Assembly: GCA_951406725.2 (NCBI GenBank)
Contig: OX597822.1
Location: 37,820,001-37,884,000 of the forward strand
Direction: 5' to 3'
Length of the DNA stretch: 64,000 nucleotides
DNA from: Octopus vulgaris
Lineage: Eukaryota
The notes beneath the pieces were generated by a model that was given only the letters and a program-made list of their open reading frames with translations, searched no databases and was not told the DNA's origin. Positions within the stretch are counted from its first letter, which is position 1; each line of letters begins with the position of its first letter. The position numbers were made by a program, and so were the translations under genes. Below, piece by piece: positions 903 to 60,428 of this stretch.

Positions 903-947
903 TTACTTTTGACAATCTTTTTCCAAAGAGTGAAACCGGTTAAGTAA
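903..947 (+). ncRNA. Minimal type I hammerhead ribozyme motif, U3-A8 core variant
   Basis: Stem I ttactt(903-908)/aagtaa(942-947); core TTGACAA; stem II cttt(t)/(a)agag with a first-position U.U mismatch; GAAA-CCGG-TT with palindrome AACCGGTT; about 45 nt upstream of (TA)n at 988. Confidence 0.6.
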
Positions 948-1047
948 ATAAACATCTCTTAAATTGCATTTTCAAACCTTCTTTCGTATATATATATATA
1001 TATATATATATATATATATATATATATATATATATATATATATATTT

Positions 1048-1411
1048 AGGCGCAGGAGTGGCTGTGTGGTAAGTAGCTTCCTTACCAACCACATGGTTCA
1101 GGGTTCAGTCCCGCCGCGTGGCACCTTGGGCAAGTGTCTTCTATTATAACCTCGGGCCGACCAAAGCCTTGTGAGTGGATTTGTTTGACGGAAACTGAAA
1201 GAAGCCCGTCGTATATATGTATATGTCTGTGTTTGTGTGTCTGTATTTGTCCCCCCCCCAACATAGCTTGACAACCGATGCTGGTAAGTTTACGTCCCCG
1301 TAACTTAGCATAGAATAAGTACTAGGCTTACAAAGTCCTGGGGGTCGATTTGCTCGACTAAAGGCGGTGCTCCAGCACGGCCGCAGTCAAATGACTGAAA
1401 CAAGTAAAGAG
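1048..1411 (+). mobile_element. SINE family A (tRNA-like head, CORE-like box, internal microsatellite)
   Basis: A-box-like gtggctgtgtggt, B-box-like gggttcagtccc, ccttgggcaagtgtctt box, tail ccagcacggccgcagtcaaatgactgaaacaagtaaa; more than 10 copies in the window. Confidence 0.85.
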
Positions 1412-1432
1412 TATATATATAAGTACAGGATA

Positions 1433-1750
1433 GTGAAGGCGCATGACTCAGTGGCTAGATCGTGAGGTTGTGAGATCGATTCCCGAACTAGGCTGCGTAC
1501 TATGTTCTTGAGCAAGACACTTTATTTCACGTTGCTCCACTTCACTCAGCTGTAGAAATGAGATGTGATGTCACTGGTGCCAAGCTGTATCAGCTTTTGC
1601 CTTTTCTCTTGGATAACATCAGTGGCGCGGAGAGGGGAGGCTGGTATGCATGGGCGACTGCTGGTCTTCCACAAACCACCTTTCTTGGATTTGTGTCTTA
1701 GAGGGCAACTTTCTAGGGACAATCCTATGGTCATTTATGACCGAAGGGGG
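1433..1750 (+). mobile_element. SINE family C
   Basis: gaaggcgcatgactcagtgg head and tgttcttgagcaagacactttatttcacgttgctcca box; near-identical layout at 14579-14918. Confidence 0.8.
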
Positions 1751-1961
1751 TCATTAATATACACAGGCACATGCATATATTTCTCAATATTATCGTTAAA
1801 GACGTTACGACAAATATATAAATTTCTATTTTGTCCACGCCTCTCTCTTCCTCTCTCTGCTCTCTCTCTCTCTCTCTCTCACACACACACACACACTCTC
1901 TCTCTCTCTCGCACACACACAACACACTCTCTCTCTTCCTGCCTGTCTGTATGCATGTATG

Positions 1962-55859: not shown

Positions 55860-57189
55860 TACAGTACAGTATATTGTTTTATTGTATTTACAGTACCTGC
55901 ATTTTATTAGGTTGATAAAACTTGTACTTCACTATAAATATTTATTTCTTCCTAATTCCCTTATTTCTTCTGTATTCAGAATATTAAAGATTATCCTGAT
56001 GTATACATAGAGTTTTAATGAGTTTTATACGATGCTATGGTAATTTAAAAAGTAACGTTCTGATATTCGGAAAATTTAATAATCTGGCAACCCTTATGTT
56101 CTAGTGGTGACGAGTAGGTGGAAGTTTGCTGCACACACACACACAAACACACACACACACACACACACACACACACACACACACACACACACACACACAC
56201 ACACACACACACTAATCGAAGTGTACAGTATTATATATATCCATTAGTCAATCTTGTAAATCGGTTTCGCACAGGGTATGATACTGGATGTCACGTAGCA
56301 GTTCGGTTAAGTAATACCGCGTATTCGTCATAGCTGGGATGTATGGAAAAAATATGGCAGTTGTTTTCTGTTGTTGGAGGTGAAAAAACACATCCAGTTT
56401 TTTAGGTGCTCAAGTAGAAGTAGCACTAATTGTGTCTTTAACAGTCACTGTTACACGAAAATAGTCGTAAATGGGACAGAAGTAACATCAAAAGGTGCAA
56501 ATGAGTTACCAAATGTGCGGAAGTATGCGGAGTGGCAGAAGGTCTCTTCAGATCCAGATTCAATAGCCATAAATTCTTCAATATCTCGGAGAGACGAAAT
56601 GCCACTGCCCTGGTCAGGCATGTATAATCGTCAATGGAAAGTACAAAGGATATGCTATAAAGAGGAAAACATGTATGTATGAGTGTATATACATACATAC
56701 ATACATACATACATACATACATACATACATACATACATACATACACACACATATATATATATATATATATATATATATATATATATATATATATATATAT
56801 ATATATATATATATATATATATATATATATATATATATATATATATATATATATATATATATATATATATATATATATATATATATATATAATACAGCGA
56901 GCACTAGGTAGTTGATTATAAAACAAAATACGAGGGAAAAGTATACAAAAATCCCAGGAAAACAGTAGCGCTTTGAACAAGATAACATCAAAGAAATAAG
57001 GCATAAAACATCAGGCCTAATGATGTAGCCGTGGTGGACGACTACATGCCAGTCTCATGTGACAGCTGTTCGTGCCGTCTACAACATCCCACAGATTTAG
57101 TGAGTCCTTGAAACTGCAGGGGCCACCGGTGGCTGAGTCCTCTTACTGACGATTTCCTAGACACAACAGTTCATAGGTTTTGTATCAAT

Positions 57190-57500
57190 TCGCCTTAGTC
57201 TTGCCCGGCATAAACTGCCTTCTCCTCATTACGTAGGATAGTAACATCGTGCGCCACACATCTTGAGCTGCTTGGTGATGGCCAACATCAACTCGCTGGG
57301 GTTGTCGTTGATGGAAAAACCCGGCCGTCCTTACGACGTGTAATCGCTGAAAATCTCTTTGACCAAGGATAACACGTCCCCATTGAGAGGACTCGCCTCT
57401 TTTTTGACTCCTAACACAAAGAACCCAACCACACTTCAGAGCTGGCGATCTCCAAATCACTGTTGTTGACACAGCTACAGTCACAAGCTCAGCGTCAAAG
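57190..57500 (-). pseudogene. Highly decayed Tc1/mariner-superfamily (maT-like) transposase N-terminus
   Basis: Frameshifted pieces NNSDLEIASS, SFVLGVKKE, NGDVLSLVK, VRTAGF, INDNPSELMLAITKQLKM. Confidence 0.45.
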
Positions 57501-60095
57501 TGGAATTTACCGTGATGACGGTTGTTGATATATCTGAAAGAGAAATGAAAAAGTTTAAATTTGGCAAATGTCATGTAACATTACGTTTGGTTGTCTTTGT
57601 TTATAAATAACCTGTGTAACCTCTCTGTATGTATGTGTGGGTATACGTGTGTATATGTATGTACCTATGTATGTGTCTGTTATCTCCATATGCATGTATA
57701 TATGCATGTATTTGTGTGTTTGTGTGTATATGCATGTAAATGTACTCGTATGTGTGTATGTATGCATGCATATATGTGTACGTATGTGCTTATATGTATG
57801 TATGAATTAGTGAAAAATAATCAAAAGCGTTATCAATGCATGTGGCTACTCGACACGTTAAAAGCAGCAGCGAAATCACACCCTAGGGAGTTGCAAAAAG
57901 AAAAAAAAATTTAAATAATAACAATAAATAAAAAGAGAAAAAGCAACTTTATATATGAAGTAGAAAGTAGATGATGAGATAACCACCACCACCGCCACCA
58001 ACAATAACATCACTACCACCATCACCACCACCACCACCACCACCACCACCACCACCACAACCACCACCACCACCACCACCACCACCATGACGCTACCACA
58101 ATAACCATCACCATCAGCACACTACAACTGCAACATTGTAACCACCACCGCCGCCGCCGCCGCCACCACCACCATAACACTACAATGATCACCATCATTG
58201 CTACATCAACATCACTACCACGGCCAACACAATCACTAACCCCCATCACCACCCCACTACCACCCCCACCACCACCACCACAACTACCCCCCCCCACCAC
58301 AAACCACCAAGTCTTTCACTACAATCACTGCCACCAGCCACGCCAGCGCCGCCACATAAAGACGATGTCTCCCTGGTAGTAAAATGCTTGGGACGGTGAA
58401 ATGTGGAACCGTTGACAAGTGTGAGGCTTCAGCTTGCTATGGATGCATAGAAGTGAAACCTTTCATATGGCCTATATAAGGAGGAGCGGAAGGAAAACGT
58501 GTGTGTGCGTGTGTGTGTGGGGGGAGGTGATGTGGTGGAAGTTGGGGGTGGGTGGGAGAAAGGTGACCACATGAGGAGGAGGAGGAACAAGAGAAGGAGA
58601 AGGAGGAGGAAGAAGAAGAAGAAGAAGAAGAAGAAGAAGAAGAAGAAGAAGAAGAAGAAGAAGAAGAAGAAGAAGAAGAAGAAGAAGAAGAAGAAGAAGA
58701 AGAAGAAGAAGAAGAAGAGGTACTGCAGAGAAATACAATGGTAGTAGCGGTGGTGGCGGTGAGTGGAGAGTGATAGAGTGAGTGAGAGAGAGAGAGGGGA
58801 TAGGAAGAGTGAATGAGGTTTGGACGTGATGCAGGTTGATAGTAATAGTAGTAGTGGTGTTAGTAGTCGTGGTGGTGGTAGTGGTGGTGGTGGTTGTGGT
58901 AGCAGTGGTGGTGGTTAAAGAGGTAATGATGATGCTGGCTGTTGTATTAGTGGTTACGGTAATTATGATGGTGGCGATGATAGTAGTAGTAGTATTAGTA
59001 GTAGTAGTAGTAGTAGTAGTAGTAGTAGTAGTAGTAGTAGTAGTAGTAAGTAGTGATGGTAGTGGTTGGGATAGCGATAGTAATGGTCGTGTTTATAATG
59101 GTAGTAGTGGTAAGTGGTAAGTGGTAGTGGTTGTGGTTGTAGTTGCAGTGCTAGTTGGCGTGGTATTGGTAACGGTAATGATGATAATGATGATAGCAAT
59201 GGTCATTGTAATAGTAGAGATAATGATGGGAGTGGTGGTGATGGTGGTGGTTGTGGTGGTGGTAGTGCTGTTGCTGTTATTGTTTAACTCCAGATTTTGC
59301 TGCTATTTCTAGCAGTACAAGTGACTGCATAGAGGTTCCTTCCGAAGATTAGAAAAGCAAATATGAAGATGATGTAAAGCAATTAATATATTTTAATATA
59401 CCTCGGTCTCTGTCTGTCTGTCTGTCTACCTGGTTGTCTGTCTATTTCTTTATCTCTTGTTATTTCTCTCTCTCTCTAATTTCTGGAAGTGTGCGTGTAT
59501 ACACGTACACACACACATATACCTTCCCCCATATACGTCTCTGTGTGTCACACACACATTCACACACACACACACACACGCACGCACACGCACACATACA
59601 CGCGCGCGCGCGCCTACATATATTTTCCCCAATACATCTTTCAATATATCTTTATTAGTCACAGTGCTGACTATTCTAAAGAAGCGCTTAATGAAATCTA
59701 ACCTAATACACACACACACACACATCTACACATACACACACACATACACATGCGCACACACACATACACAATCAAAATATGCCATGCCATAGTGCGTACG
59801 AATATTAATATTAAAACGATATCAGTTTACTGTAGACTTGGTGTTTTGTTTCGATTGCTAATTCAATCTCATCAGTGAACAAAGAAACTGTCTATATAGC
59901 AGTCTTATAATTACAACTTTGTGCTATTCCATGTTATTATTGGTGAGATAGTAATATAGCAACCAGATCTGTTGACTGGCACATTTTCACAAAATATGCA
60001 AAATTTACCATACGGACACAATTTATGCACAGAAAGTACTAAAATGGTTCGAAATACTAAGAGCAACAGCTATTTTCCAACAAATTTGTAAATAC

Positions 60096-60258
60096 AGGCA
60101 CAGGTGTAACTGTGTGGTAAGATGCTTGCTGCTCAGCCACATGGTTCCGGGTTCAGTTCCACTGCGCGACACCTTGGGCAAGTGTCTTTTACTATAGTCT
60201 CGGGCCGATCAAAGCCTTGTGAGTGGATTTGGCAGACGGAAAGTGAAAGAACCTCTTG
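60096..60258 (+). mobile_element. SINE family A, 5' half
   Basis: Head, B-box and accttgggcaagtgtctt box. Confidence 0.8.
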
Positions 60259-60393
60259 TTATATACATACATACATACATACATACATATATACATAAGA
60301 GAACAAAAAAGGGTCATTCAATATGTGACCGCGTGTGTATCTTGGCGATTTTTACCCTCCGTCTTCCCTTCCTTGGATCTTTCCTTTTTCTAT

Positions 60394-60428
60394 GTTTGTG
60401 ACGAAGAGCTCAGCTCGAAATGTTAAAT
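60394..60428 (+). ncRNA. Decayed ultra-minimal hammerhead motif
   Basis: gttt-GTGACGA-a-gagc-tca-gctc-GAAA-TG-TT-aaat; two changes from CTGACGA...GAAACGTT; about 100 nt before (TA)n. Confidence 0.55.

Follow-up and report, generated by a model that had tools for sequence, protein, structure and literature searches.

Hammerhead motifs at (TA)n tracts of an Octopus vulgaris locus: putative truncated ends of Penelope-like elements and retrozyme-like units

A stretch of 64,000 nucleotides of the Octopus vulgaris genome (assembly GCA_951406725.2, contig OX597822.1, positions 37,820,001 to 37,884,000 of the forward strand; hereafter, the window) carries many hammerhead-ribozyme-like motifs beside (TA)n tracts, which raises the question of what elements they belong to and how these came to be inserted. 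An earlier note on this DNA, made from the letters alone, proposed coding Penelope-like elements (PLEs) accompanied by many distinct non-coding partners, each with a stem III palindrome of its own. Here, we find it probable, at roughly 0.7, that the hammerheads mark the 3' termini of elements of two kinds, truncated PLE ends and retrozyme-like units, both put into (TA)n by a dimeric PLE reverse transcriptase (RT)-endonuclease. Element families are designated A to O and are listed in Table 1.

The window was scanned with a strict type I descriptor (CTGANGA, stem II, GAAA, palindrome, TH, and a stem I of at least 3 bp). Five matches were obtained, with cores at 29825+, 34813+, 41418+, 43415- and 60747-, and none in 100 local-block and 100 whole-window dinucleotide shuffles; as the earlier note had held, the motifs are genuine type I hammerheads, and their density exceeds that of shuffled sequence (five against zero). 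The best formed of them, 60747-, with an 8-bp stem I, was absent from its list. Relaxed scans of the window added 37162- (core CTGGAGA), 909+ (core TTGACAA) and 60398+. Genome-wide, the pattern CTGANGA-N12-42-GAAAC-NNNN-GTH gave 18,763 matches against 1,711 for its reversed control, and overall shuffles and reversed patterns yielded 0 to 9% of the hammerhead signal. The estimate of one motif per 5 kb holds for the window when decayed copies are counted, but not genome-wide, where the intact short-stem C-NNNN-G class occurs about once per 150 kb. The core CUGANGA/GAAA/UH, or its U3-A8 form, is found with three helices across the families, whose stems are wholly unlike one another yet paired in each. 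Within families, one stem I pair of K changes from CG to TA in 6 of 35 copies and two pairs of O do so in 6 of 38, so that the covariation asked for is seen both across families and within K and O; H is uninformative here because its stems are nearly invariant across copies. Single defects mark K, N, H, I, L and C as they stand in the window. A search of Rfam returned, among the 150 of 390 matches listed, microsatellite-driven miRNA-type matches and no hammerhead.

Several sites had been regarded as variant or decayed, and this description was partly right. Other copies of the families at 12485-/12561+, 22311, 29037, 36609 and 60398 (I, L, M and N) carry recognisable hammerheads, whereas at 13842 (J) only the GAAA-CAGCTG-TA half is kept across copies, with no intact core found in them. 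The TTGACAA core at 909+ is not decayed, since it is of the U3-A8 type described by Cervera and de la Pena in 2014 (PMC4209133, available text), and it is intact in 22 of 24 family G loci. The motif listed at 15963 has its core at 16004, reading TTAATAA in the window and TTGATAA in 32 of 35 copies. At 40717+ the window motif is degenerate and one relative passes the descriptor; at 54370- the first stem II pair of the window copy is broken, and the motif TTGGGACCAA has 191 exact genome matches against 0 for the control. The label "minimal" fits few of these motifs. In the sense of Cervera and de la Pena it applies to L (22311/29037) and N (60398), where the helix III insert is absent or of 2 nt, while the other families have palindromes of 4 to 10 nt; most motifs are not minimal because a 6-nt palindrome could form 2 bp plus a tetraloop and stem II is often 42 to 103 nt long. 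The placement of the motifs at PLE-type termini near (TA)n was borne out: of 23 element ends, 18 come within 15 nt of a (TA)≥5 tract, compared with 6.4% of random positions, a figure that is partly circular because the ends were set by eye. GAAA-CGGCCG-TA anchors at 43025(-) and 35276(-) also adjoin (TA)n, without an intact core in the window, and probably represent another PLE-end family; intact CGGCCG hammerheads exist elsewhere in the genome (e.g., in the flank of locus L136).

Next, we asked which of these ends belong to coding elements. The frames of B and C match Hydra-type PLE proteins: the B endonuclease is 69% identical over 144 amino acids to an intact genomic relative of 775 amino acids, and the C RT frame (38261-40054) shows 93% identity with an Octopus sinensis protein. 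Two hammerheads therefore lie in 3' untranslated regions (UTRs) of GIY-YIG PLEs, as had been stated. A Pfam search of the window did not recognise the PLE frames. Homologs and intact relatives place an RT with a C-terminal GIY-YIG domain and RWK-like and DKT motifs in A, B, C, F and probably D, these two motifs being read in the relatives, as the window fragments are without the N-terminus. The CxCX5C linker is readable in the DNA of A and in L461-L472 and is absent from L455-L460, the closest intact relatives of B. The Hydra-type families combine (TA)n insertion with a hammerhead in the pseudo-long terminal repeat (pLTR). Public octopus gene sets name Hydra-type PLE fragments (P0001, P0033) "myb-like protein I" and "GATA zinc finger domain-containing protein 14-like", and the Asn-rich insert of the 38261-40054 frame resembles those of Adineta PLEs in the available text of PMC3846280.

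Families A (43415), F (40717), G (909) and D (29825) had been counted among the non-coding partners. Copies of A have a common 3' end and staggered 5' ends, and in the longest one a UTR of about 1.4 kb leads into a Hydra-type endonuclease. A query across the A endonuclease-UTR junction gave Hydra-type endonuclease matches in 20 of 20 loci and reached the A hammerhead downstream, on the same strand, in 8 of them. For F, a Hydra-type endonuclease or RT was reached upstream in at least 7 of 23 other copies. Upstream of G there is a GIY-YIG frame with a CxxxxCxxC linker, together with open reading frames (ORFs) bearing DKG; one 847-codon open frame has a G hammerhead upstream and is flanked by G ends, and at L474 such ends lie about 2.4 kb past the stop codon. 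DKG, a CX2-5CxxC linker and, at the C-terminus, a GIY-YIG domain place G with the Neptune/Nematis-type PLEs, two types not told apart here. D extends about 0.9 kb upstream and meets a collinear Hydra endonuclease further up in just 2 of 20 loci, for which reason it is only probably an old Hydra-type PLE 3' end. By these sequence comparisons, A, F and G are 5'-truncated 3' ends of coding PLEs of the Hydra or Neptune type, contrary to the earlier description. The note had reasoned that families running into a full PLE ORF would be truncated ends rather than partners; this is the case for A, F, G and probably D, but not for K, H and O. A circular form of D, considered initially, was rejected, as the matching stretch is D's inverted tail, and two G hammerheads 1.4 kb apart at L137, taken at one point as a retrozyme, proved to be a local duplication that includes the flanks.

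The UTRs between the hammerhead end and the ORF measure roughly 0.8 to 2.4 kb in A, F, G and D. Those of G, A and E (L194, L032, L198) are 1.2 to 2.4 kb long, of low complexity and rich in TG/TA/CA, which makes part of the apparent simple repeat retroelement UTR. Stop-free Hydra frames of 680 to 850 codons are numerous in the genome and could serve as sources of enzyme. One Hydra family has dozens of near-identical stop-free 727-codon frames on many contigs and, on that resemblance, is likely to be active at present; no descriptor hammerhead was found within about 2 kb of four of its copies. The candidates returned by genome searches (e.g., 2338 for A and 3417 for H) are first-look counts and not copy numbers.

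Families K, H and O behave differently from these ends. Their units of 355, 464 and 461 nt (GC content of 46, 31 and 32%, respectively) have longest ATG-initiated ORFs of 37, 40 and 31 amino acids, and their longest arms span 2.97, 1.65 and 1.85 units. Arms cross the predicted cut site in 57 of 62 (K), 48 of 59 (H) and 41 of 51 (O) cases. When 37 loci of K and 40 each of H and O were extended upstream, only the previous unit was entered, and no collinear PLE protein match was found upstream in the 40 loci each of H and O; no long arrays were seen for either of these two. All three families therefore have two of the features that characterise retrozymes, a short non-coding unit with a type I hammerhead and head-to-tail copies with at least two hammerheads (for K, no RNA record was listed among the sources of its sequence, which weighs neither way on its expression), and the claim that non-autonomous ribozyme retroelements are present was confirmed for K, H and O, the last of which had been missed. 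They are likely to be non-coding, circularly permuted retrozyme-like units copied by a PLE enzyme. A pattern built on K stem I gave 1,229 exact genome hammerheads against 0 for the control, some of them in siblings carrying CCTAGG, CCATGG or CTCGAG. One of these, K2 (G000:C1:180105941-180107396 and L485-L506), is a very young 353-nt sibling with CTCGAG, runs of up to five tandem units and core copies that are 95 to 100% alike. By eye, K and K2 have a common short hairpin just upstream of start site 1 (see below), a candidate recognition element for the RT. Hammerheads with a CGTACG palindrome recur at a spacing of about 550 to 560 nt on one strand (G000:C1:1193739-1194341, 13960641-13961245 and 14261823-14263214), suggesting a further retrozyme-like family. 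At L069, two identical hammerheads (CCGATGA core, CACGTG) lie 362 nt apart, 1598 and 1236 nt upstream of the oriented D end, and are likely to be another retrozyme dimer.

The stem III palindromes are under selection. A palindrome-free descriptor run over 1.69 Mb of fetched loci gave 63 unique matches in 14 families, 11 of them palindromic, and 0 in shuffled DNA. Five of the 14 families had originally been found via their palindrome; of seven met by chance, five have perfect and two near-perfect palindromes. By manual count, perfect palindromes occur in 74 of the first 100 genome matches listed, with 12 different hexamers. The selected positions would form the loop of a monomer, which fits pairing between two hammerheads. 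The view that nearly all the non-coding units are independent non-autonomous partners, with each palindrome restricting dimer cleavage to its own family, gains from the non-coding permuted units of K, H and O, from the K siblings, which swap CCTAGG, CCATGG and CTCGAG while stem I stays constant, and from the predicted K-O heterodimer, whose gain of -2.8 kcal/mol is weaker than that of the homodimers (-5.6 and -11.2). This view nevertheless appears unlikely: PLE ORFs are reached from A, F, G and probably D, and the hexamers are shared between families (CAGCTG in A, E and J; CATATG in B and C; CCTAGG in K and O; CAATTG in 4 of the 14). For A and E, the heterodimer is predicted to equal the homodimers in stability (-11.1 against -9.3 and -7.9), and a 6-nt palindrome also permits 2 bp plus a tetraloop, a form said in the available text of PMC7229834 to cleave efficiently as a monomer in invertebrates. 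Thus, the proposal of one palindrome per family survives as regards selection and fails as regards a family barcode. When two hammerheads join in a double one, the molecules pair through stem I as well, so that stems I and III together would set specificity. The palindromes could discriminate only among siblings with a common stem I, as in the K superfamily.

The opposite view makes all units truncated or deleted PLE ends, with K, H and O as locally duplicated pLTRs that have no RNA life cycle of their own. PLE inserts do form partial tandems (PMC8557442), and Li, Clavereau and Pollet derive retrozymes from pLTRs in the available text of their 2026 preprint (bioRxiv 10.64898/2026.07.22.740005). 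We consider it improbable, since upstream of K, H and O there is only the previous unit, nothing is held in common with the PLE loci sampled, and the three families are scattered over hundreds of (TA)n sites, where their two-armed footprints are fresh.

The insertion footprint itself carries information on how both kinds of element were copied. Each of nine families examined has two preferred, fixed 3' end points, or start sites, spaced 42 to 185 nt apart (42 nt in G and about 150 nt in B; unit positions 139/183 in K, 284/368 in H and 460/91 in O). Two-armed inserts are arranged head-to-head, with both 3' ends facing outward and one arm per end point. In an automated count over the nine families, 76 of 90 arm pairs had one end of each class (binomial P of 9e-12 against 0.5, the highest asymmetry that independent site choice permits). 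On review, the 14 remaining pairs comprised 2 truly symmetric, 7 asymmetric with partial tails and 5 spurious or interrupted, which brings the asymmetric pairs to 83 of 85 classifiable ones. A K/K2 sample chosen by pattern and not by length was asymmetric in 10 of 10 cases (one duplicate counted once), and of the new H inserts 6 were asymmetric, with 1 doubtful and 2 that could not be classed. For K (13 inserts), arms of one insert diverge by 1.65% and arms of different inserts by 3.26%; the first figure was matched in 0 of 2000 permutations, and 17 variant columns are common to both arms of an insert. Tails reach 65 to 185 nt in the window families. In A, the (TA)n tract has expanded within the element between its end and the tail, and some (TA)n tracts are therefore element-borne. 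Priming by TA microhomology was considered as a requirement and rejected; it fits the start sites of A, B, G, H and K but not site 1 of K2.

These footprints favour a dimeric RT that primes both break ends on one RNA over fold-back self-priming, given one end class per arm, the variants private to an insert and shared by its arms, and tails on the shorter arm. The PLE RT-endonuclease would cut both strands in (TA)n, one protomer would begin copying from site 1 and its partner from site 2 of the same RNA, and both cDNAs would be truncated and then joined head-to-head. K, H and O would borrow this enzyme with a circular or multimeric template, as their arms continue past the unit junction and the ribozyme site, over as many as three units; through the palindromic stem III, two hammerheads within a multimer would pair and release monomers, the cleavage being predicted. 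In vitro, according to the available text of Frangieh 2024 (PMC11167929), both strands of AT-rich DNA are cut and extended by a PLE protein, two internal start sites define the tail, and the protein was modelled as a dimer. The published interpretation of head-to-head junctions is another one. In the available text of Arkhipova 2013 (PMC3846280), where the tail lies on one inverted pLTR, the inversions are read as self-priming; inverted arms would arise by fold-back of one cDNA or from an antisense template, the tail being left by endonuclease resolution. Such a process also predicts variants common to both arms and can explain the tails found on the long arm in 14 of 24 linear-PLE inserts. 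In the other 10 of 24 (two of the underlying arm lengths are rough), the shorter arm bears the tail and the long one has none, so that the tail cannot have been copied from the latter; the arms are also mostly unequal, with junction overlaps of 0 to 5 nt. Fold-back is accordingly hard to credit, about as much so as an origin of all units from PLE ends. Finally, that the inverted-repeat units are miniature inverted-repeat transposable elements (MITEs), with fixed length and constant terminal inverted repeats, or chance AT-rich matches is suggested by the look of the window copies, and we count it as refuted, as arm lengths and junctions vary in every copy and the controls gave so little signal.

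Several observations weigh against two-site insertion of two kinds of element by a dimeric enzyme. Only A, B, C, D, F, G and K, H, O are placed in the two kinds, and E, I, J, L, M and N stand outside them; for E, other copies continue upstream for at least 1.2 kb in UTR-like sequence, where three walks met neither an ORF nor a permutation, while I, J, L, M and N had a single search each, biased to 3' ends. Most loci are best matches to queries rather than random draws, two inserts (L002 and L136) are truly symmetric, and a single donor locus or gene conversion could likewise account for the similarity of the arms. At the predicted cut site there is no excess of 5' ends (1 of 62, 1 of 59 and 0 of 51, and 0 of 39 in a later sample), nor of those of the short arms (3 of 82 compared with 1.6 expected, P of 0.23), so there is no genomic sign of cleaved linear RNA as the template. 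Minimum free energy folds gave a full hammerhead for O only, most window copies being no better than shuffles. When K, H and O were compared by blastn with 84 PLE-end and 22 intact-element loci for an autonomous partner, no shared sequence was found. In the available text of Frangieh 2024 (PMC11167929), moreover, the hammerhead needs the protein, insertion in vitro does not depend on it, and the start site does not differ between strands. We remain tentative, somewhat short of even odds, about the wider proposal that octopus harbours a young, active radiation of hammerhead RNA circles parasitising PLE enzymes, in which inserts would record dimeric two-site priming on one RNA and stem III would gate same-family cleavage.

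The combination of hammerhead, PLE and retrozyme is not a new system. Hydra-1_Obim, with its (TA)n preference, is already in the supplement of Craig 2021 (PMC8557442), and Hydra-clade PLEs described there, known from Octopus, share with ours a C-terminal GIY-YIG domain, RW(K) and DKT motifs, CxC/CxH endonuclease motifs, a canonical hammerhead, (TA)n targets, an inverted 5'-truncated arm and an optional tail. Ours differ in tails of 65 to 185 nt instead of 30 to 40, in low-complexity UTRs of up to about 1.7 kb, and in the missing CxCX5C linker of B's intact relatives. G, typed by its motifs, shares with Neptune/Nematis-type PLEs DKG, the linker, a C-terminal GIY-YIG domain with C/C/H/H residues, a 42-nt tail and a microsatellite target, and differs by its U3-A8 core with CCGG and a TG/CA-rich 3' UTR of about 2.4 kb. 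The PLE minimal hammerheads of PMC4209133 are, in its available text, likewise type I, with a palindromic 15.2-16.2/loop 3, a U3-A8 variant and solitary copies ascribed to truncated PLEs; here, in contrast, palindromes are mostly of 6 to 10 nt and stem II reaches 103 nt, with only L and N minimal. Animal non-LTR (long terminal repeat) retrozymes, defined by Cervera and de la Pena in 2020 (PMC7229834) and derived from PLEs, with the mechanism left open, in the 2026 preprint (bioRxiv 10.64898/2026.07.22.740005), are described in the available parts of both as 350- to 460-nt non-coding units with a type I hammerhead, in monomers to short multimers, beside PLEs. Unlike them, K, H and O are mostly dispersed inserts of 1 to 3 units with a full PLE footprint, and no pLTR homology was found for them among the PLE loci compared. 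That footprint, with two start sites, head-to-head arms and (TA)n, is direct structural evidence of PLE mobilisation, of a kind absent from the available parts of those two works. Poseidon PAc of Anolis (PMC11167929, available text) also has two internal RT starts that define the tail, cutting and extension of both strands, an AT-rich target and a predicted dimer, but its two sites are not tied to the two ends of one insertion, as they are here. Non-autonomous Chlamys elements such as MRC1 (Craig 2021) are likewise partners of PLEs and form multi-copy head-to-tail insertions; they are algal and have 3' sequence in common with autonomous families, whereas K, H and O carry hammerheads and showed no such homology to the PLE loci compared. 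As the component classes are already published, we regard the present findings as a mechanistic refinement and a variant. In the literature covered, we found no octopus retrozymes or retrozymes shown with a full PLE footprint (Repbase and the supplements of Li 2026 were outside its scope) and no quantified one-site-per-arm rule (the subscription papers Evgen'ev and Arkhipova 2005 and Arkhipova 2006 were outside its scope).

In their available text, the PLE and retrozyme papers leave questions on the origin of the inverted arms and one-sided tail, the role of the hammerhead, and the enzyme that moves animal retrozymes. The coupling of two start sites to the two ends of an insert is a countable rule that joins these questions and predicts a specific product in vitro, for which the young families (K2, G, and the intact Hydra and Neptune ORFs) are ready substrates. 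It also means that, in cephalopod DNA rich in (TA)n, retroelement ends with a ribozyme lie hidden by the tens of thousands, and that the inverted repeats resembling MITEs here are scars of retro-insertion.

Table 1. Elements of the window and their hammerheads; element assignments are putative, and positions count from the first letter of the window.
Element	Position	Strand	Description
G	597..986	+	5'-truncated 3' end of young Neptune-type PLE, ending at RT site 1 beside (TA)29
G hammerhead	903-947	+	U3-A8 core TTGACAA (909), palindrome CCGG, predicted cut after 941
I	12326..12935	.	Head-to-head two-armed insert; old family
I hammerheads	cores 12485- and 12561+		70-nt stem II, CAATTG palindrome, decayed in window
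J	13680..14065	+	Decayed hammerhead-like end with inverted arm; CAGCTG in other copies
K	15721..16214	+	Non-coding, retrozyme-like; 355-nt unit plus 139-nt repeat, (TA)n on both sides
K hammerhead	core 16004	+	U3-A8 type (G5A in window), CCTAGG, predicted cut after 16037
L copy 1	22299..22412	+	Minimal hammerhead, core 22311, 2-nt palindrome TA, U16.1 to C; short old 3' end
L copy 2	29025..29148	+	Core 29037; 87% identical to copy 1
D	29637..29984	+	Two-armed insert; inverted arm with tail 29637-29806
D hammerhead	core 29825	+	103-nt stem II, CAATTG, predicted cut after 29946
B	33940..34935	+	Hydra-type GIY-YIG endonuclease frame 33940-34533, then 3' UTR, hammerhead, (TA)34
B hammerhead	core 34813	+	CATATG, predicted cut after 34885
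M	36480..36730	+	Decayed hammerhead end, core 36609, ATCGAT; old family
C	37022..40206	.	Two-armed Hydra-type PLE
C minus arm		-	Endonuclease 37748-38416, hammerhead core 37162 (CTGGAGA), CATATG
C plus arm		+	RT frame 38261-40054 with N-rich insert; joined to 3' end 39935-40061, tail to about 40206
F	40357..40904	+	5'-truncated 3' end of Hydra-type PLE; degenerate hammerhead, core 40717
E	41095..41530	+	Two-armed insert; inverted arm with tail of about 185 nt
E hammerhead	core 41418	+	57-nt stem II, CAGCTG, predicted cut after 41493
A	43298..43851	-	Two-armed Hydra-type PLE 3' end; core 43415, CAGCTG, predicted cut after 43376
A inverted arm	43553-43624		Followed by (TA)48 expanded within element, then tail to 43851
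H	54172..54613	-	Non-coding, retrozyme-like; 464-nt unit (window copy internally deleted); core 54370, TTGGGACCAA
N	60312..60527	+	Minimal hammerhead, core 60398; C3G in window, GAAA-CG-TT in other copies
O	60532..60982	-	Non-coding, retrozyme-like; 461-nt unit; not on the earlier list
O hammerhead	core 60747	-	Intact, 8-bp stem I, CCTAGG, predicted cut after 60687

Other repeats were also observed in the window. An inverted pair beside (TA)n (36090-36222 and 35964-36117) is 76% like the tail sequence of E, with no hammerhead seen in it. A remnant of an LTR retroelement at 25445-28828 has a weak integrase zinc-binding match (26626-27258), a 160-nt direct repeat (25445/28158) and a 221-nt inverted repeat (27865/28608). 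A dispersed sequence resembling a short interspersed element forms a 148-nt tandem repeat of 2.9 copies at 23794-24229, and fragments of a long interspersed element (zf-RVT, 61404-62099) and of a Tc1-type transposase (63200-63541) lie toward the end of the window.

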